IMG/VR virus record: IMGVR_UViG_2711768059_000015
Reading direction: 5' to 3' (one strand)
DNA: 30,972 nt
Origin: a virus
Lineage: Duplodnaviria > Heunggongvirae > Uroviricota > Caudoviricetes
The notes under the pieces are model-generated. The model saw only the letters and a list, made by a program, of their open reading frames with translations. It was not told the DNA's origin and searched no databases. Every line of letters begins with the position of its first letter. The stretch's first letter is position 1. Of the stretch, positions 5,406 through 25,948 are shown piece after piece. Made by a program: the position numbers and the translations under genes.

Positions 5406-6095
5406 CTAACCAAATCTGTTTATGTTGAATGGTACTGATGAGATCACTTTAGACTGGATATAAAGCAGAGCTAACCCCTCTTTTTCGATGCTCCATGGTT
5501 GATAATTGGGGTTATCAGATAACACCATGATTTTGCTTCCAATTTTTTGAAGCCTTTTCACGTAGCATTCTCCATCAAAACAAAATGCATAAATACCATC
5601 GCCATCAAAATAAGTTACTGTCTTATCAAGAAAAAGAAGGTCGCCAGGTGAGATTGTGGGAGCCATACTGTCTCCTCTGGCGTTACCTATTTCTATATTT
5701 TTGAATGCCCGATTTCCAACAAGACGTCGGGCATATTCAGGATCAAGTTCTATTGAGCGCACTACATCTATCAAGTCACCACGGACATGAGTTCCATCAC
5801 CGCAACTAAACTCAACATCAAGGACATTAAACACGACGCTATCTGTTCTTGTCTGGTGTTTCTCTTGCGAGGAAAAGGTTGGTGAGGAGTCTTCACCTAA
5901 GAACCAGGATTGTGGATAACCGCTAATCTCTGATAAATGCGCGAGCTTATCACTCCGTGGAAATGTTTTTCCTGTTGTCCAGTACTGCACTGATTGCGCA
6001 CTCACACCTAACTTGCGGGCCAGTTGAGCCTGAGTCCATCCTTTTGCTTTCAGCATCGCGGCTATTCGATTTTCCGTGTTTTTGACGTTCTTCAT
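5406..6095 (-). CDS. cI: CI-type prophage repressor (N-terminal XRE HTH, C-terminal S24 LexA-like peptidase domain)
   Basis: 229 aa. N-terminal HTH (GWTQAQLARKLGVSAQSVQYW). C-terminal S24 autocleavage domain with the catalytic Ser in GDSMAPT and a downstream Lys. Divergent from a Cro-like gene. Confidence 0.9.
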   Translation of the reverse strand: MKNVKNTENRIAAMLKAKGWTQAQLARKLGVSAQSVQYWTTGKTFPRSDKLAHLSEISGYPQSWFLGEDSSPTFSSQEKHQTRTDSVVFNVLDVEFSCGDGTHVRGDLIDVVRSIELDPEYARRLVGNRAFKNIEIGNARGDSMAPTISPGDLLFLDKTVTYFDGDGIYAFCFDGECYVKRLQKIGSKIMVLSDNPNYQPWSIEKEGLALLYIQSKVISSVPFNINRFG

Positions 6096-6604: not shown

Positions 6605-7459
6605 ATGATGATCAATAAACAAAAAATAGTCAACCCTGAAAACTTGCCAGTTATTGAGTGGCAGGGAGTACGTGTAGTTACCACCGAAACGTTGGCGGCG
6701 GGATATGGAACAACGCCAATCCGTATACAACAGAACTACATTCGAAACGAAGATCGTTTCGTTGAGGGTAAACACTTTTTCAAAATCAGCGGTGATGAGC
6801 TGAAATCTTTCCGACTATCTTTTAGCGAGTCGGTTAATAAACATACAACATCACTTGTCCTCTGGACAGAACGCGGCGCTGCCCGCATGTCAAAAATCGT
6901 CGATACAGACGAGGCCTGGTCGTTCTTCGAAAAAATGGAGCAGGCGTATTTTCGTAAAGCAACGCCTTCTTCAAACACTATTCCAGACTTTGACGATCCG
7001 ATCGCTGCTGCTGAAGCGTGGATTGAAGCCAAAAAATCCGAACGCCTTGCTCTCGGGTATGCAGAGCGTCAGGCTCGCTACATCAGCAAACTCGAAAGCC
7101 ATCTCGCCGATGGCATCACTCCTGTGCAGTTCTGCAAACAACTCAACGGTGTAAACACTCGTCAGATTAATGCGTTCCTTGAAGAGCGTAACTGGCTGTA
7201 TGACGACCGTCCGGAGGCTATGTATCCGCGCTGGCGTGTAAAAGCGTATGCACGTGACCAATACCTGACTGAGCGTTCTGGGCAGGTTGAGCAGGAAAAC
7301 GGGGAAATGCGCGAGATTTTCAAACCACTCCTGAAGAAAAAAGGTGCCGCCTGGTTATATCGCCATTATCTGAACGGTGAACTACCGATGAAGAAAACAT
7401 GGGATGGGCTGTTTACCCATAACACTGAGCTCGCGAATCTTTTACAGGAGAACAAATAA
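6605..7459 (+). CDS. Antirepressor-like protein (N-terminal ORF6N domain, C-terminal KilA-C/Ant domain)
   Basis: 284 aa with AAGGGGA RBS. N-terminal region carries the ORF6N-type LWTERGA motif; the C-terminal half resembles the phage antirepressor Ant/KilAC domain. Confidence 0.75.
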   Translation: MMINKQKIVNPENLPVIEWQGVRVVTTETLAAGYGTTPIRIQQNYIRNEDRFVEGKHFFKISGDELKSFRLSFSESVNKHTTSLVLWTERGAARMSKIVDTDEAWSFFEKMEQAYFRKATPSSNTIPDFDDPIAAAEAWIEAKKSERLALGYAERQARYISKLESHLADGITPVQFCKQLNGVNTRQINAFLEERNWLYDDRPEAMYPRWRVKAYARDQYLTERSGQVEQENGEMREIFKPLLKKKGAAWLYRHYLNGELPMKKTWDGLFTHNTELANLLQENK

Positions 7460-7668
7460 TGCAAACCAAGACGTGTGTAACTGGTGATGTCGATCTGAAA
7501 CCTTGCCCGTTCTGCGGAAATCCGGAAGTACAACTCATTGAGGTGAAATATTTTCTGGATGGCGATGATGGTTATTACGTCGCATGTACTTGCTGTAACG
7601 CAAACCAGATCCCTGATTCGAAAGAACGTGCTGTTCATGACTGGAATCAGCGCGAAAACGCGGATTGA
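7459..7668 (+). CDS. lar: Lar-family restriction alleviation protein
   Basis: 69 aa with CPFCG and CTCC cysteine pairs characteristic of Lar-family zinc-ribbon proteins. Start overlaps the upstream stop (TAATG). Confidence 0.7.
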   Translation: MQTKTCVTGDVDLKPCPFCGNPEVQLIEVKYFLDGDDGYYVACTCCNANQIPDSKERAVHDWNQRENAD

Positions 7669-7685
7669 CGGCGAGTAGGTACAAA

Positions 7686-8537
7686 ATGATCCGCAACCAA
7701 CATATTGATTCTGCAATTTCGGGACGTTACACTGTTCCAGCACCTTATAAAGCGGGGGCCGGGCGTGGAAACCCGAAATTCAATATAGAGCACAACCGCG
7801 CTCATGCGGTTTTTTCGTGTCATGAGCATCGTTACGCCCAAATTATGGTGGGGCGTGCAGGGCCAACTTCGGTTGGGCCGGGTTCTATGTTGACCGGTAT
7901 TTCCACCCCTGTACGTCTCACCACCTATATGGTCGTGGAAAGCCTTGGTGGTGAGTTCATTGAATTCAACATAGGGGCTGTCACCATGACTACTCTCCCA
8001 ACCCTCTCTCAACCTGAAATCACGATTATCAATGGTCGTGTTGTCACCACATCTCTTGCAGTTTCTAATTACTTTACTAAACGGCATGAGCGGGTTTTAG
8101 ACAGAATTCGAAACCTCGAATGTTCCGCTGAATTTACTGAACACAATTTTGTGTTAAGTGAATACACCGACGCATCAGGCCGCAAACTTCCCTGCTACCA
8201 AATCACCCGCGACGGTTTTGCGTTTCTTGCCATGGGCTTCACTGGCAAACGTGCAGCCAGGTTCAAAGAGGCATACATCAACGCCTTTAACCAGATGGAG
8301 AAGAATTTATCTGGTGGTGACGCGGTTGATATGTCAGCTGTTGCACGAAACGCCAGAGGCGTATACCTGCATTTGCGTGAAATCCATCAAATCTGGAAAA
8401 GCCAGCTTTACCCCATGCTTAAGGCCGTTGAATCTCCGCTGGCGAGCAAGCTGTATGACCGTGTAGGAGATGCTGTTTTTGGCGCTGCACTTGTTGATTC
8501 CAGACTTAATGGTTCTGACAAGGAGGCGCACCCATGA
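7686..8537 (+). CDS. rha: Rha-family phage regulatory protein; start uncertain (ATG 7686 or ATG 7986)
   Basis: The Rha-like domain starts at the ATG at 7986 (MTTLPTLSQPEITIINGRVVTTSLAVSNYFTKRHERVLDRIRNL). The frame stays open upstream to 7686, but that 100-aa extension does not look like a typical domain. The track's 7665 start is a TTG. Confidence 0.6.
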   Translation: MIRNQHIDSAISGRYTVPAPYKAGAGRGNPKFNIEHNRAHAVFSCHEHRYAQIMVGRAGPTSVGPGSMLTGISTPVRLTTYMVVESLGGEFIEFNIGAVTMTTLPTLSQPEITIINGRVVTTSLAVSNYFTKRHERVLDRIRNLECSAEFTEHNFVLSEYTDASGRKLPCYQITRDGFAFLAMGFTGKRAARFKEAYINAFNQMEKNLSGGDAVDMSAVARNARGVYLHLREIHQIWKSQLYPMLKAVESPLASKLYDRVGDAVFGAALVDSRLNGSDKEAHP

Positions 8538-8758
8538 TTCGCCGCATCGTTAATTCCCTGTATCACCGATACAACCGTTGCCCCCGTGTGGGGCAGTGGT
8601 TCGCCACCAGCAACGGTCACGTTCTGCGGGTTTGCCTAGTCAACGCTGAAAGCCAGAAAGTCGTGTGCGAACTACAGGGGCGTAGCTACACCATCAGTTA
8701 CCCGCTGGCGGTATTTCTGTCTGGAAAAATGTTTAAGCGTCTGGGAGGTGCCGTGTGA
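8534..8758 (+). CDS. Hypothetical protein (74 aa)
   Basis: Overlapping start/stop (ATGA) with rha, and its stop overlaps the replication gene start. No family recognised. Confidence 0.45.
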   Translation: MIRRIVNSLYHRYNRCPRVGQWFATSNGHVLRVCLVNAESQKVVCELQGRSYTISYPLAVFLSGKMFKRLGGAV

Positions 8759-9747
8759 GCCGTTACGCTCCTACACCTGAAGTTATGGCTATTGGCCAAC
8801 TCAATATTTCTGGCAATGTCACACCAGCGAACTGGTGGAAACATATTCGGCTACCAAGTGGTCGTCCGGATGCGACTGCCATTGCGCTGCTTTCAGAGAT
8901 TGTTTACTGGTACCGCCCGACAGAAGTCAGGGATGAGCATACCGGGGCTTTACTGGGATATCGCAAGCGTTTTCAGGGTGACAAGCTGCAAAGAAGCTAT
9001 CAGGCGTTTGCTGAACAGTTTGGCTTTGGGAAAAGGGAAACCGCAGATGCGCTGAAGCGTCTTCGTGATGCTGGGTTTATTACTCTGGATTTACGTACGG
9101 TGGAAATGCTAGACGGGGTGAAATGCAGCAATATTTTGTTTGTCGGGATCAACCCACAGGCAATTGCTGCCATCACCACACCTTCTTCTGTTTCGCCAGA
9201 AAGTAACAGCAATAACTCAATCAGCGATACAGCTATTACGTTAAAACGGAACACCCCCCAACGTCATAACGGAACAGGGGATACGCCGAATGTTGATACA
9301 AATACAGAGATTACTACAGAGATTACAACGGAGACTAAAAACACTATTGGAGCATCCGCTGACGCGTCTGCACCAGCGCGTTCTGCCCGACAGGAATATT
9401 CACCGGAATTTGAACAGGCCTGGCAGGAATATCCCAAACGTGCTGGTGGTAATTCCAAGTCAGCAGCCTTCAAAGCCTGGAAAGCCCGTATCAGGGAGGG
9501 AATAAAACCGGAGACCATGCTTGATGGTGTGAAGCGGTATGCCGCCTGGGTACGTGCTACAGGAAATACCGGCACACAGTTCGTGAAGCAGGCTGCGACG
9601 TTCTTTGGACCCGATCGTCACTTCGAAGATTACTGGCAACAGCCAGCCGCTCCCGGAGGTGGGCGACAGCGACAGGTCGATGTCCTGGCTGGCCTGGGAG
9701 CCATGTCTGACAAATTCGGTAAATCCAGTGACAAACTGACATTCTGA
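8755..9747 (+). CDS. Phage replication initiation protein (O-like replisome organiser)
   Basis: 330 aa. GTG start with GGAGG RBS 6 nt upstream. The C-terminal segment (EYSPEFEQAWQEYPKRAGG...FKAWKARIREG) is a motif I associate with phage replication initiators. Located directly upstream of DnaC- and DnaB-like genes. Contains internal tandem repeats. Confidence 0.7.
   Translation: MSRYAPTPEVMAIGQLNISGNVTPANWWKHIRLPSGRPDATAIALLSEIVYWYRPTEVRDEHTGALLGYRKRFQGDKLQRSYQAFAEQFGFGKRETADALKRLRDAGFITLDLRTVEMLDGVKCSNILFVGINPQAIAAITTPSSVSPESNSNNSISDTAITLKRNTPQRHNGTGDTPNVDTNTEITTEITTETKNTIGASADASAPARSARQEYSPEFEQAWQEYPKRAGGNSKSAAFKAWKARIREGIKPETMLDGVKRYAAWVRATGNTGTQFVKQAATFFGPDRHFEDYWQQPAAPGGGRQRQVDVLAGLGAMSDKFGKSSDKLTF
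9301..9336. repeat. Three tandem 12-bp repeats inside the replication initiator gene (candidate ori iterons)
   Basis: ACAGAGATTACT / ACAGAGATTACA / ACGGAGACTAAA, encoding TEITTEITTET. Confidence 0.5.
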
Positions 9748-9757
9748 GGTGACAGCG

Positions 9758-10636
9758 ATGATGACGATTAACCAACGTGAGAAACAAACAAGACTACAGG
9801 CGCGAATGGATGAGTTACGGGCAGAGATTGCATTTGCTCAGAATGGCGAAAAGCCATGGCCTTACCGCGCCTGCCGGGAATCTGAAGGGGTTGGATGCTG
9901 CGAAAAACACGGTAAATATCGTACGCATATACTGGTGTGGGATGATCGGCAGGGGGGCGCTGTCTCAAAAATTTCCCGCTGTCCGGAGTGTCTGGTGGAT
10001 GAAATGGATGTGACACATCGGACTCTGGTTGCAATGAAAGCTGATGTGCTGATTGAGAATGCTGGTGTTGCCTGTAGGTTTCGCGACTGTGAGTTTGAAA
10101 ACTATCAGGAGATTAACTCTGATGCAGCCAGAAATCTTGCTGCCTGCCGCCGCTATGCAGAGAGCTGGGAGGATGTTCTGGCTAACGGTACCAGTCTTGT
10201 TCTGACAGGCAGTTGTGGTACCGGAAAAAATCATCTGGCTGTGGCTATGGCAAAACACATCATCCGTAACCATCTGGCCAGTGTGGAGATTACTGATGTG
10301 ATGCGCCTTACCCGTGCTGTGAAAAACTGCTGGCGGAATGACAGCGAAAAAACAGCGGATGAAGTTATTGAGCATTATGCGTCATTGGATTTGCTGATCA
10401 TCGACGAAGTCGGCGTTCAGTTTGGCAGCGCGGCTGAAATGGCTATTTTGCAGGAAATTATCAATGCCCGGTACGAAAGCATCCTGCCCACCATCCTGAT
10501 CAGCAACCTTTCACCGGAAGAGTTGTGGGCGTTCATCAGCCCACGCATTGCCGACAGGATCACAGACGGGGGACGCAACTGGTTGTCGTTTAACTGGCCC
10601 AGCTATCGTGCGCATATTGGAGGTGTGGCTGCATGA
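9758..10636 (+). CDS. DnaC-like helicase loader (IstB-like AAA+ ATPase)
   Basis: Walker A GSCGTGKNHLAVA and Walker B LLIIDEVG. ATG at 9758 with GAGGTG RBS (the track ORF begins at a GTG at 9749). Confidence 0.85.
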   Translation: MMTINQREKQTRLQARMDELRAEIAFAQNGEKPWPYRACRESEGVGCCEKHGKYRTHILVWDDRQGGAVSKISRCPECLVDEMDVTHRTLVAMKADVLIENAGVACRFRDCEFENYQEINSDAARNLAACRRYAESWEDVLANGTSLVLTGSCGTGKNHLAVAMAKHIIRNHLASVEITDVMRLTRAVKNCWRNDSEKTADEVIEHYASLDLLIIDEVGVQFGSAAEMAILQEIINARYESILPTILISNLSPEELWAFISPRIADRITDGGRNWLSFNWPSYRAHIGGVAA

Positions 10637-12024
10637 CCACTCCAGTATGGCGTAACGATGATCTGGAAGGCGCTGTCATTGGCGCGTTTTTTCTGCGTGG
10701 GGCAGATCATGAAGTGATGGATATTCTGGCCACACTGCCAGCGGACGTTTTTTCTGTACGAGCGTATAGGGATATCTACACAGGCATCTGCCGACAGGCT
10801 CGTGTTTCAGGTGTGATTGATCCTGTGCTGCTGTGTAATGAAATGCCGGAACTTGCTCCGGTGATTACTGATACCGGGCGTAAAACCTGGGTGAAGTCTT
10901 CACTGGAGCACTATGTTGCAGCGTTGCGGCGCAATGCTGCATTGCGTGATGCAGAAAAAACACTGAATGAGGCGCTGCAGAAATTACGTGATGCGCATAC
11001 CTGTGAAGCAGCTGAAGATGTCCTGAAGGATGCGCAGAACATGATGGCTTCATTGTCGACGGAAAAGGGCATTATTCAGCCGGTACATATTGATGATGTG
11101 CTTCCGGAGGTGGTTGAGCGTGTTGAATGCCGGAATCAGGGACTGGAGAAATCCAGAACGTTGATGACCGGTATTGAGGAGCTGGACGCAAAAACAGGTG
11201 GCATGGAGCCCGGCGACCTGGTGTTCATTGCGGCTCGTCCGTCAATGGGCAAAACCGAACTGGCGCTGGATATCATCGACAAGGTGACTGAGCAGGGGCA
11301 TGGTGTTCTTCTGTTCACAATGGAAATGGCGAACATCCAGATTGGTGAACGCATGGTATCTGCGGCTGGAGGAATGCCGGTATCACGCCTGAAATCTGTC
11401 ACTCACTTTGAAGATGAAGACTGGGCGCGTTTCTCACAAGGGGTGGGACGGATGACCGGTCGCAATATCTGGATGGTGGACCAGGCGAATCTGACCATTG
11501 ATGAGATATGCGCAACAACGAAACACCACTTGATTAAACATCCGGAAACGGCGCTGGTGGTGGTTGATTATCTCGGGCTGATAAAAACCCGGAGCACGGG
11601 GCGTCATGACCTTGCCGTGGGTGAAATCTCAAAGGGGCTTAAAGGCCTGGCAAAATCCGGTGGTTTTCCGTTGATTGCGCTGAGCCAGCTCTCCCGCGGT
11701 GTGGAGTCCAGGCCCAATAAACGCCCCATGAACTCAGACCTGAAAAATTCCGGAGAAATAGAGGCGGATGCAGACATCATTCTGATGCTTTACAGGGATG
11801 AAGTGTACAACCCGGATACGCAGGCCAGGGGCATCGCAGAAATCAATATCACGAAACAACGTAACGGTTCTCTGGGGACAATTTACCGGCGTTTTTATAA
11901 CGGACATTTTCTGCCTGTAGACCAGGAAAGCGCACAGGTTCTTTCCACCCCAATGCAGCCGCCTCAGCCGCGCAGATACAGCAATAAACGAACCAACAGT
12001 AGTAAGATGGAGCGTTTCTTTTGA
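10633..12024 (+). CDS. dnaB: Replicative DNA helicase, DnaB family
   Basis: 463 aa. Walker A ARPSMGKTE, DnaB-type motifs (VVVDYLGLI, LSQLSR arginine finger region). GGAGGTG RBS; overlaps the DnaC-like stop. Confidence 0.9.
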   Translation: MTTPVWRNDDLEGAVIGAFFLRGADHEVMDILATLPADVFSVRAYRDIYTGICRQARVSGVIDPVLLCNEMPELAPVITDTGRKTWVKSSLEHYVAALRRNAALRDAEKTLNEALQKLRDAHTCEAAEDVLKDAQNMMASLSTEKGIIQPVHIDDVLPEVVERVECRNQGLEKSRTLMTGIEELDAKTGGMEPGDLVFIAARPSMGKTELALDIIDKVTEQGHGVLLFTMEMANIQIGERMVSAAGGMPVSRLKSVTHFEDEDWARFSQGVGRMTGRNIWMVDQANLTIDEICATTKHHLIKHPETALVVVDYLGLIKTRSTGRHDLAVGEISKGLKGLAKSGGFPLIALSQLSRGVESRPNKRPMNSDLKNSGEIEADADIILMLYRDEVYNPDTQARGIAEINITKQRNGSLGTIYRRFYNGHFLPVDQESAQVLSTPMQPPQPRRYSNKRTNSSKMERFF

Positions 12025-12035
12025 ACAACCAGACA

Positions 12036-12278
12036 ATGACTTTTACCCCTGAACAATTACGCAAACAGGCGCAGGAAATGCTGCGACAGGCGGAACAACT
12101 GGAAAAATCAGGCGTAACAAAAGATGCCATTCGTCGGGATATGGTACCCGCGCTCAGAGAACTGATGCAGGCAAAACACCGCGCACAAAAAGCGGTGGAT
12201 GAGCTGGTGGATTGTGTGGCAGAGCTGGAAACAAAAGTTGGAAAATTTGAAAAATTGGTGCAGGGGGTACTGCGTTGA
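12036..12278 (+). CDS. Hypothetical coiled-coil protein (80 aa)
   Basis: ATG at 12036; predicted helical, charged sequence. No family recognised. Confidence 0.45.
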   Translation: MTFTPEQLRKQAQEMLRQAEQLEKSGVTKDAIRRDMVPALRELMQAKHRAQKAVDELVDCVAELETKVGKFEKLVQGVLR

Positions 12279-17541: not shown

Positions 17542-19298
17542 TGGCAAAAGTGGCTGACGGGATCCGCTACGCCGAACGTGTTGTTGCAGGAGAAATTGTT
17601 GCTGGCGAATTTGTCCGCCTGGCCTGCCAGCGTTTTCTTGATGATCTGAAGTACGGCGAAGAGCGGGGGATTTATTTCAGTGAACCCCGTGCGCAGCACA
17701 TCCTGAATTTCTACAAATTTGTGCCTCATGTAAAAGGGGCGCTGGCAGGCCAGCCCATTGAGTTGATGGACTGGCATGTATTTATCCTCATTAATATTTT
17801 TGGTTTTGTCATTCCGCTGGTCAATGAAGAGACCGGGGAAGTTGTCATGCGCAGCGATGGCAGCGGACGTCCGGTGATGGTGCGCCGGTTCCGGACGGCG
17901 TACAACGAAGTCGCCCGTAAAAACGCAAAATCAACTCTGTCATCGGGTATCGGCCTGTATATGACGGGGGCAGATGGTGAAGGCGGAGCTGAGGTGTATT
18001 CAGCCGCAACCACGCGTGACCAGGCCAGAATCGTGTTTGAAGACGCCAAAAATATGGTCAGAAAAGCCCGGTCGACACTCGGGCGGTTGTTTGATTTCAA
18101 CAAGCTGGCGATTTACCAGGAGCAGAGCGCATCAAAATTTGAACCGCTTTCTTCGGATGCAAACAACCTGGATGGTCTGAACATCCACTGCGCCATTATT
18201 GATGAGCTGCATGCACATAAAACCCGTGACGTGTGGGACGTTCTGGAAACGGCAACCGGTGCTCGTCTGCAGTCCCTTTTATTTGGTATCACCACGGCAG
18301 GGTTTAACAAGGAAGGGATTTGTTACGAGCAGCGTGATTACGCCATCAAGGTATTGCGTGGCTATAACAGCGACGTGGAGGGCGCGGTAAAAGACGACTC
18401 CTACTTTGCGATTATTTACACCCTCGATGAGGGAGATGATCCGTTTGATGAAACGGTCTGGCAGAAAGCGAATCCCGGCCTGGGCATCTGTAAACGCTGG
18501 GATGATCTGCGTCGCTTGGCGAAAAAAGCGAAAGAACAGGTCTCTGCACGGGTGAATTTTTTTACCAAACACATGAATGTGTGGGTAACAGCAGAGTCTG
18601 CCTGGATGGACATGATTAAGTGGGAGAAGTGCGAATACATTGCCCCACGACATGAGCTGAAAACGTATCCCATGTGGGTCGGCGTTGACCTTGCTCATAA
18701 GATTGATATCTGTGCGGCGGCAAAACTCTGGCGAACGGATAACGGGCATGTTCATGCCGATTTTAAATTCTGGCTTCCGGAAGGACGGCTGGAACGATGC
18801 TCGCGGCAGCAGGCAGAACTTTACCGGAAGTGGGCGGAGATGGATAAGCTGATTCTGACGGATGGTGATGTTATCGATCATGCTCAGATAAAAAGTGACT
18901 TACTGGAATGGATTGGTGGTGAAAACCTCAGGGAACTGGGATTTGACCCGTGGAGCGCGATGCAGTTCAGCCTGGCACTGGCTGAAGAAGGGATACCGCT
19001 GGTGGAGGTTCCGCAGACGGTTCGCAATCTGTCAGAGGCCATGAAGGAAACGGAATCACTGGTCTATGCCGGGCGTTTCCATCACAGCAATCATCCGGTC
19101 ATGAACTGGATGATGTCTAACGTTACGGTAAAACCGGACAAAAACGACAATATCTTCCCGAATAAATCCACGCTGGAAGCCAAAATCGACGGTCCTGTTG
19201 CGATGTTTACAGCAATGAGCCGGATGCTGGTCAATGGCGGTGAACCGGAGCCGGATCTGTCTGAGCATCTGGTCAGCGTTGGTATCCGCTCGCTTTAA
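17541..19298 (+). CDS. terL: Terminase large subunit
   Basis: 585 aa. N-terminal ATPase and C-terminal nuclease architecture. Position between TerS and the portal. Confidence 0.9.
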
Positions 19299-25606: not shown

Positions 25607-25948
25607 ATGAGAAAATCAGTGGTGACATTAGCTTGTTTGTTTTTTATTAGTGCATGTAAGCCATCAGATAATTATGTTATTTCTTTAGGGGAAAACTTAG
25701 TTAAAGATAAGCTTATTGATCCTGATAGTGCAAAATTTAATTCTTTTTTTCATAAGTCAGGTGATTTATATGGTTATGTTTGTGGTGATGTTAATTCAAA
25801 AAACACGTTTGGTGGATATACAGGGAAAAAGCCATATTTTGTTTATTTGGAAGTTGTGGATGGAAAAGTTAAGAGTCATGGGACTGTAACAATTGTTAAT
25901 GATCATGATCCAAGCAGTATGGAAAAATATAAGTTGTTTTGCCAATAA
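25607..25948 (+). CDS. AT-rich lipoprotein moron inserted between the G/T chaperones and the tape measure gene
   Basis: ATG at 25607 with AGGAGG RBS. Signal peptide with lipobox (FISAC). About 113 aa. Strongly AT-rich against GC-rich neighbours. Followed by its own terminator. Confidence 0.7.
   Translation: MRKSVVTLACLFFISACKPSDNYVISLGENLVKDKLIDPDSAKFNSFFHKSGDLYGYVCGDVNSKNTFGGYTGKKPYFVYLEVVDGKVKSHGTVTIVNDHDPSSMEKYKLFCQ

Follow-up and report, generated by a model that had tools for sequence, protein, structure and literature searches.

We analyse a candidate replication origin inside the replication initiator gene of an E. coli lambdoid prophage. The prophage DNA, hereafter the window, is a stretch of 30,972 nucleotides (IMG/VR record IMGVR_UViG_2711768059_000015) that encodes an initiator–loader–helicase (ILH) replication module, a term of Weigel and Seitz as cited in PMC9144972. 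The initiator gene (8755–9747, plus strand, 330 aa, from the list of open reading frames (ORFs)) matches phrog_270 'replication initiation protein' (E 9e-79). It is followed on the same strand by genes for a DnaC-like helicase loader (9749–10636; Pfam IstB_IS21, 1.4e-15, and Bac_DnaA ATPase; phrog_50, 5e-83) and a DnaB-like replicative helicase (10633–12024; Pfam DnaB_C, 5.6e-73, and DnaB N-terminal domain; phrog_19, 3e-117), so that the three ILH genes stand in order with overlapping stops and starts. This agrees with a preliminary description of the window, which had recognized a replication initiator gene of lambda-like layout next to DnaC-like and DnaB-like genes. The same description took tandem 12-bp repeats in the middle of the initiator gene for origin iterons. 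We favour a different reading, to which we give a probability of about 0.6: positions 9238–9346 would form a two-part origin of the lambda/SPP1 type within the initiator gene, in which iterons specific to the N-terminal domain are followed by a conserved unwinding and linker tract that is also the point at which modules cross over. Judging from the sequence, the 12-mers are probably not the binding sites of the initiator.

The initiator consists of an N-terminal winged-helix-like DNA-binding domain, a low-complexity middle, and a small helical C-terminal domain. The N-domain (8755–9160, plus strand, limits approximate) belongs to a family, here N1, with members in phages of E. coli, Acinetobacter, Bacillus, and Staphylococcus. 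It is 38–48% identical to the N-domains of Bacillus phages phiCM3, PM1, and 0105phi7-2 and of Acinetobacter phages Acba_23 and A2.1. HTH_36 matches the N-half weakly at residues 81–109, and the whole protein matches no Pfam or NCBIfam family above threshold (Pfam E ≤0.01). The remainder of the interdomain linker, NTIGASADASAPARSARQEYSPE, and the left edge of the shared C-terminal module (9340–9402, plus strand) are delimited by megablast breakpoints, predicted local distance difference test (pLDDT) scores, and identity profiles. In the AlphaFold2 model of the C-terminal fragment, the first 17 residues have pLDDT below 50, and four helices are formed at fragment residues 22–88 (mean pLDDT 69.7). 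This helical core (EFEQAW...YPKRAGGNS...FVKQAATFFGPD; 9403–9603, plus strand, from the model and alignment) is the presumed contact for the loader or the helicase. Related PHROGs carry the names 'DnaD-like helicase loader' and 'primosomal protein'. Searching the PDB with the sequence of the C-domain returns no match, and neither does a Foldseek comparison of its model with the PDB (E ≤0.001). E. coli genomes annotate the initiator as 'replication protein' or 'LvrA C-terminal domain-related protein', and the gene has matches in 480 of 5,426 complete E. coli genomes, chromosomal every time.

The 12-bp tandem tract (9304–9339, plus strand) is composed of three units, ACAGAGATTACT (9304–9315), ACAGAGATTACA (9316–9327), and ACGGAGACTAAA (9328–9339), which encode TEIT, TEIT, and TETK. 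It is in frame with the initiator ORF from codon 184 onward and occupies nucleotides 550–585 of 993, i.e., the middle of the gene. Tandem Repeats Finder reports 9303–9334 as the top array of the window (period 12, 2.7 copies, 90% matches, score 50), and the exact core CAGAGATTAC occurs in the window at 9305 and 9317 only. The repeats that the preliminary description had placed within 9290–9345 are thus real. They also encode, as it had stated, a linker between the N- and C-domains; this segment is of low complexity, predicted to be disordered, and located at the domain junction. A self-match of 20/24 at a shift of 6–30 arises in 1 of 300 dinucleotide-shuffled versions of the gene and in 1 of 40 of the whole window, and chance alone is only moderately unlikely. 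The tract, whose consensus in initiator genes is ACARAGANTACT, is conserved in hundreds of related loci, indicating that it is not a chance repeat.

Upstream of the tract, two 17-mers on the plus strand, ACGTTAAAACGGAACAC (9238–9254) and ACGTCATAACGGAACAG (9261–9277), form a direct repeat in the interdomain coding region. They are identical at 14 of 17 positions and lie 23 bp apart. Their 15-nt core occurs exactly twice in the window, at 9238 and 9261, and a pair of this quality arises in 5 of 300 shuffles of the gene. No further copy within three mismatches is found near the gene; possible weaker, phased copies at about 9215 and 9290 did not convince us. Across homologues of the N-domain found in the window, every lineage carries direct repeats of its own no more than 150 nt upstream of the tract; they are 14–17 bp long and phased by 22–23 bp (or 44–46 or 66–69 bp). 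The sequence of these repeats differs by lineage, while the tract is unchanged. For example, four copies resembling ACGTTGAAACGGAA recur every 22 bp in the close relative L196, L138 has five to seven copies of AGGGTnTTnCCC at 23 bp, L156 has GACCCTCCnCAC, and L229 and L230 have others. Co-variation with the N-domain is the expected signature of iterons. Therefore, the upstream repeats are iteron candidates, and the two 17-mers appear to be better ones than the 12-mers. An isolated 10/12 copy of the 12-mer, TACAGCTATTAC, is located at 9228–9239, directly upstream of the first 17-mer, and the third unit of the tract contains AACGGAGAC, which is similar to the iteron core AACGGAACA. Therefore, the 12-mer and 17-mer families interleave slightly.

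The tract is shared among initiators with unrelated halves. A sample of 80 viral contigs and 3 annotated records, selected by a C-terminal domain at least 93% identical, carries five different N-terminal halves, each with private repeats just before the junction. Type A, that of the window, has two copies of ACGTnAnAACGGAACA; type B (Shiga-toxin (Stx) phages, e.g., Stx1_14040) has lambda-like CCC...GGGAAAC palindromes; type C (phiP27) has CCnTCAGAWTCTGR; type D has ATTCACCAGGTGGTGCA-like repeats; and type E has GTGGAAACnCCGCAAAC in four copies. Types A, B, and E all carry the ACAGAGAWTAC tract and have N-domains that are at most 30% identical, with A and B aligning over the linker only. Therefore, the tract cannot set the specificity of the initiator. 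It is absent from some relatives with the same C-domain, e.g., phiP27 and type D. Relatives without the TEIT tract (L087, L092, L028, L095, and L107) often have another tandem repeat of 12-bp period at the same junction, such as GAACCAGTCAAA (EPVK), GAACCATCATTA (EPSL), or CAGACCATAGAA (QTIE). In phiP27 (L002, AJ298298, 1977–2903), gene L17 combines an HTH_36 N-domain with the window's C-domain and is followed by DnaC-like and helicase genes. The 'P27' of PMC7466680 is described with a lambda-like O and six iterons; either the two are different phages or the names have been confused.

The sharing extends across C-domains and host phyla. An exact-pattern scan of viral contigs with CAGAGAWTACNNCAGAGAWTAC returns at least 120 loci. 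Among the matches listed, 100 of the 120 surrounding ORFs have a C-domain different from that of the window, and these other C-domains form at least 11 clusters, including lambda-O-type, Phg_2220_C (PF09524), and DnaB_2 (PF07261). Among the same matches, the G+C content of the contigs ranges from 0.32 to 0.59, and the frame is essentially always TE[IN]T, at the N/C junction of an ORF of 250–390 aa. When initiator genes with different C-domains are compared by megablast, the 40–45 nt of the tract are the sole alignable stretch. Phages with tract-bearing initiator genes include those of E. coli, Acinetobacter, Bacillus, and Staphylococcus, and all six named phages retrieved by protein homology have the tract (Bacillus phiCM3, PM1, and 0105phi7-2; Staphylococcus SpaA1; Acinetobacter Acba_23 and A2.1). 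TEITTEIT, TENTTEIT, and the 12-mer were not found in this sense in the literature searched, which returned unrelated primers only.

Homology between initiator genes begins and ends at the tract. Megablast matches of the window's gene to other phages start at nucleotide 550 of the query (window 9304, where the tract begins) or at 589–593, just past the tract, placing the mosaic breakpoints at 9304 and 9343–9347. The window and L001 are about 35% identical before the tract and 83–100% identical from the tract onward; L001 and L253 are 96–100% identical as far as the tract and about 40% past it; L001 and L139 have the tract alone in common. The tract is nearly the same in many initiator genes that are otherwise unrelated, and on this ground it can be regarded as the crossover point for module exchange. 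The copy number is also variable between closely similar prophages. Among 80 prophages with 98–100% identical N-domains, one locus has a single full TEIT unit, 66 have two, 10 have three, and one has four. In L320 and L326 (98% identical N-domains), the initiator ORF is interrupted just before or within the zone of iterons and tract, and these are probably decayed prophages.

The tract lies in a segment of low duplex stability. A zone that is A-rich on the top strand (9289–9346) holds the tract and the conserved AAAAACACTATTGG. In a nearest-neighbour scan, 9289–9328 is the least stable 40-mer of window positions 7255–12247 (dG −44.5, 72% A+T, 62% purine). As a positive control, the same scan recovers the AT-rich region of lambda as the least stable 40-mer (dG −43.0). 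The tract is also the least stable 40-mer of the replication module in L001 and L055 (types B and E), and of 38 distant relatives from other genera, 27 have the gene's least stable 40-mer 50–250 nt upstream of the C-domain anchor. The AT skew at 9289–9328 is about +0.4, the coding strand being the A-rich strand, and the AT-rich region of lambda is likewise strongly strand-asymmetric (PMC5043065). An A+T-rich, strand-asymmetric segment of low stability is thus positioned directly on the C-terminal side of the repeats. The preliminary description had proposed looking for an AT-rich unwinding element adjacent to the 12-mers. A candidate for such an element is present, not adjacent to them but as the zone of the 12-mer tract itself.

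The position of the tract corresponds to that of the AT-rich region in lambda, where the annotated iterons are followed by ACACAAAAGACACTATTACAAAAGAAAAAAGAAAAGATTATT. From DYSSENSGESSDQP onward, L141, an initiator with a lambda-type C-domain, shares 53% identity with lambda O. When the DNA is aligned, its tract (TENT-TEIT-SEST-TET) is positioned exactly opposite the AT-rich region of lambda, between the last iteron and the conserved right flank.

To separate constraint on DNA from constraint on peptide, we compare codons in two sets of units. In 99 units outside the search pattern, variation is greatest at nt 8, the second position of a codon (I/N/T/S), whereas the synonymous positions 3 and 9 are conserved at 86% and 91%, C never occurs at nt 9, and Glu is encoded by GAG 72 times and by GAA 5 times. 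Because the initial sample of the N-domain family consisted of near-identical E. coli prophages only, the second set is seeded with a Bacillus phage sequence and comprises 48 distinct genes identified by N-domain homology only (42–65% identity to the Bacillus phage sequence; G+C 0.34–0.49). At least two units are present in 42 of the 48 genes; of the remaining six, half are truncated and half have a single unit. This sample yields 13 distinct tracts with 28 units in all. Thr1 is encoded by ACA in 28/28 (against 40% in the rest of the same genes, p=1e-11) and Glu by GAG in 24/24 (against 33%, p=4e-12), p-values that overstate independence because the units are related by descent and by duplication or slippage. 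Thr4 is ACT or ACA in 28/28. Residue 3 varies among I, N, T, and S, and E is replaced by K in some units. In particular, the tract of Bacillus phage 0105phi7-2, ACAAAGATTACT (TKIT, TKITTKTT), has its charge reversed by a single G-to-A change per unit. The lambda peptide at this place is basic (TKDTITKEKRK) and that of the window acidic, yet the A-rich character of the DNA is alike. In addition, the tract is retained though the flanking N-domains have diverged to 42–65% identity. Codons are fixed while residues change, suggesting that the constraint is on the DNA rather than on the peptide, and the codon pattern favours this reading. Like DNA unwinding elements of the oriC/RK2 type, the tract is a set of 12–13-mer repeats of conserved sequence, with three units here, 2–5 in relatives, and ACARAGANTACT across phyla.

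These data bear differently on the possible roles of the tract. If the 12-mers were iterons, i.e., duplex sites bound by the N-domain of the initiator, they would be expected as tandem repeats in the middle of the initiator gene, as in lambda, and the way in which AACGGAGAC and TACAGCTATTAC interleave with the 17-mers leaves room for some joint recognition. However, the 12-mers do not co-vary with the N-domain: they are common to types A, B, and E and to many families, each with upstream repeats of its own. They align with the AT-rich region of lambda and not with its iterons, and they vary from 1 to 4 full units among prophages with nearly identical N-domains. Iterons are units of about 17–22 bp with a helix-phased spacing of about 11 or 22 bp (PMC5043065); the 12-mers are arranged head-to-tail at 12 bp, while the co-varying repeats are phased by 22–23 bp. 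We consider it highly improbable that the 12-mers are iterons. A gene-embedded origin, as the preliminary description had it, is still the best reading of the region; what fails is the assignment of the iterons to the 12-mers. It is also conceivable that the tract matters as protein only, as a Thr/Glu-rich linker generated by slippage, and that its DNA identity reflects recent spread and homogenization of repeats. The constant TE[IN]T frame, the predicted disorder, the polymorphic copy number, and the other low-complexity linkers at the same place in relatives (QEQEQE, EEEE, EPVKEPV, and SSSS) all agree with this. The codons do not: the second codon position is the most variable and the synonymous positions are nearly fixed (ACA, GAG, no C at nt 9), an acidic tract has become basic in 0105phi7-2, lambda has a basic peptide on DNA of the same A-rich character, and the tract outlasts the divergence of the N-domain. 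A role in the protein only is therefore unlikely.

A further explanation is that the tract is a sequence-specific site for a common factor, either the initiator superfamily acting on a single strand, as DnaA and TrfA do on 13-mers, or a host replication protein. The exact occurrence of ACARAGANTACT in phages of Proteobacteria and Firmicutes, its fixed codons, its fixed position beside the iterons, and the 12-bp period of the other junction tracts of relatives would fit such a site. The exact sequence of unwinding elements is known to matter, and the 13-mers of oriC are bound by DnaA-ATP (PMC5043065, a review). On the other hand, no candidate factor is identified, the tract is missing from relatives with the same C-domain (phiP27 and type D), and DnaA boxes are neither present at or beside the tract nor enriched in the window (56 versus 63.6 expected). 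We judge this explanation to be quite unlikely. A bolder proposal, which we put forward tentatively and with less than even confidence, is that ACARAGANTACT is a sequence-specific origin element of many phage initiator families, in phages of Enterobacteria, Acinetobacter, Bacillus, and Staphylococcus. It would be a dedicated motif for unwinding or helicase loading, akin to the oriC 13-mers or DnaA-trios. The initiator superfamily or a conserved replication protein would read it as DNA, possibly in single-stranded form, and it would serve as a universal joint for module swaps. The tract's likenesses to the start trinucleotides of primase and to the 13-mers of oriC, judged by eye, were dropped as unconvincing.

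We infer that the two-part element functions as an origin in the following manner. The N-domain would bind the phased 17-mers (9238–9277), and the resulting nucleoprotein complex on supercoiled DNA would open the adjoining 12-mer tract, the easiest duplex beside the initiator–iteron complex. The small four-helix C-domain would then bring the DnaC-like/DnaB-like pair of the phage to the tract once opened. The bases of the tract also encode the flexible linker, predicted to be disordered, between the domains. Homologous recombination in the tract would swap the module of N-domain and iterons and the module of C-domain, loader, and helicase, leaving the frame and the origin intact.

Several points weigh against a two-part origin of this kind. 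Only two clear iterons are present in the window, compared with four to six in lambda-type phages, although two iterons plus the AT-rich region are the minimal unwinding unit of lambda (PMC7466680). The tract (64–72% A+T, about 62% purine) is weaker in composition than the lambda region (78% and 70%). Its zone (9289–9346) ranks 20th among the low-stability 40-mers of the whole 31-kb window; the tract was thus rejected as the most A+T-rich spot of the window and is first only within the replication module. The low stability could be a by-product of polar-linker codons, and the tract is always in one reading frame, as a role at the peptide level also predicts. The shared descent of the units, already noted, lowers the weight of the codon statistics. 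Exact conservation is not needed for a generic unwinding element, and something more specific than easy melting may be recognized at the tract. Finally, the literature searched contains no mapped origin for any phage whose initiator is of this type; in papers on the replication regions of Stx phages and on Bcep22-like phages, neither iterons nor an origin are mentioned for this module.

The surroundings of the tract and of the module show further features. To the right of the tract, a perfect palindrome, GACGCGTC, is located in a G+C-rich region at 9358–9365, and a 12-nt inverted repeat (9371–9382 and 9437–9448) has arms that are 92% complementary and 54 nt apart; in lambda, too, there is dyad symmetry on the right-hand side of the AT-rich region. 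The stop codon of the initiator gene is 1 nt before the GTG of the loader gene (9745–9751), and the stop codon of the loader gene overlaps the ATG of the helicase gene (ATGA, 10633–10636), an arrangement that suggests translational coupling of the three replication genes. The loader has an N-terminal extension of about 110 aa (9749–10090) with paired cysteines (CCEKHG...CPEC), which matches phrog_22964 of unknown function and could be a module that binds zinc. Upstream of the replication genes, 7665–8537 is a 290-aa ORF with a TTG start, an Ash-family region (residues 22–117), and a Rha regulatory domain (residues 128–213). The only perfect match in the window to the full DnaA-box consensus, TTATCCACA, is at 5911–5919 on the minus strand, inside a cI-like repressor gene (5406–6095, minus strand). 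Other short arrays that Tandem Repeats Finder reports in the window are a 15-bp TTGTTGCAGGAGAAA repeat (17581–17614, 2.3 copies) and a 12-bp GGTGATGTTTAT repeat (25760–25792, 2.8 copies), the latter in a very A+T-rich stretch.

If the two-part origin is correct, sequence alone could suffice to locate the origins in a very large class of temperate phages, as lineage-specific phased repeats followed by the tract. Specificity, residing in the iterons, would be separable from a generic opening site, and the tract would explain mechanistically why initiator genes re-assort in mid-gene. Several Shiga-toxin phages carry this module, and replication control of Stx phages affects toxin production according to the papers retrieved. 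A coding sequence in which nucleotides are more constrained than amino acids would also be a useful test case for DNA with two roles. The lambda/SPP1 architecture and the ILH gene order are known; the conserved cross-phylum ACARAGANTACT junction tract appears to be new and undescribed in the literature searched.

A close precedent is the origin of lambda in gene O, which has four iterons and an A+T-rich region of about 40 bp; the N-domain of O binds the iterons, and its C-domain recruits P–DnaB. As in lambda, the candidate origin of the window is located in the interdomain region of the initiator gene, in the order iterons, A-rich tract, and C-domain (PMC7466680, PMC3349717, PMC5043065). The A-rich strand is the coding strand in both, and in genes with a lambda-type C-domain the tract aligns with the AT-rich region of lambda. 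Unlike in lambda, the clear candidate iterons of the window are two in number and direct rather than inverted, the C-domain is unrelated to that of O, a DnaC-like loader and a DnaB-like helicase take the place of P, and the A-rich part repeats precisely, in tandem, every 12 bp and has 72% rather than 78% A+T. The initiator does not belong to Phage_rep_O (PF04492), since no Pfam family matches at E ≤0.01 and only HTH_36 matches the N-half weakly. A BLASTP comparison of the N-domains of types A, B, C, and E with lambda O gives nothing significant.

SPP1 has the same gene order of initiator, loader, and helicase (G38P replisome organiser, G39P loader, and G40P helicase), and its oriL is inside gene 38 and combines direct repeats with an AT-rich unwinding element (PMC6316719). 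In the SPP1 sequence, iteron-like GAAACGACA repeats are followed at the junction (L261, 590–640) by a 9-bp tandem A-rich run, AACAATGAW, in 3–4 copies, that encodes a low-complexity linker. Compared with the window, the SPP1 tract has a 9-bp period and another sequence, the N-domain and iterons are different, and the C-domain looks Phg_2220_C-like; the origin of SPP1 has been demonstrated by experiment, whereas that of the window is a candidate proposed from sequence.

The tract also resembles the 13-mers of E. coli oriC and plasmid RK2, unwinding elements that are conserved in sequence and not in composition alone (PMC5043065), in being an A+T-rich segment of 12–13-bp tandem repeats beside (candidate) initiator sites. 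There is no evident sequence similarity to the 13-mers, which are intergenic and serve DnaA or TrfA, whereas the tract is coding and would serve a phage winged-helix initiator. Mosaic lambdoid phages have conserved 'linker' sequences at module boundaries, a feature of their modular evolution. Like these, the tract is a short, near-identical piece of DNA between unrelated modules at which homology breaks off. Unlike them, it is intragenic, a tandem repeat, and shared across phyla, with signs of constraint at the level of nucleotides.

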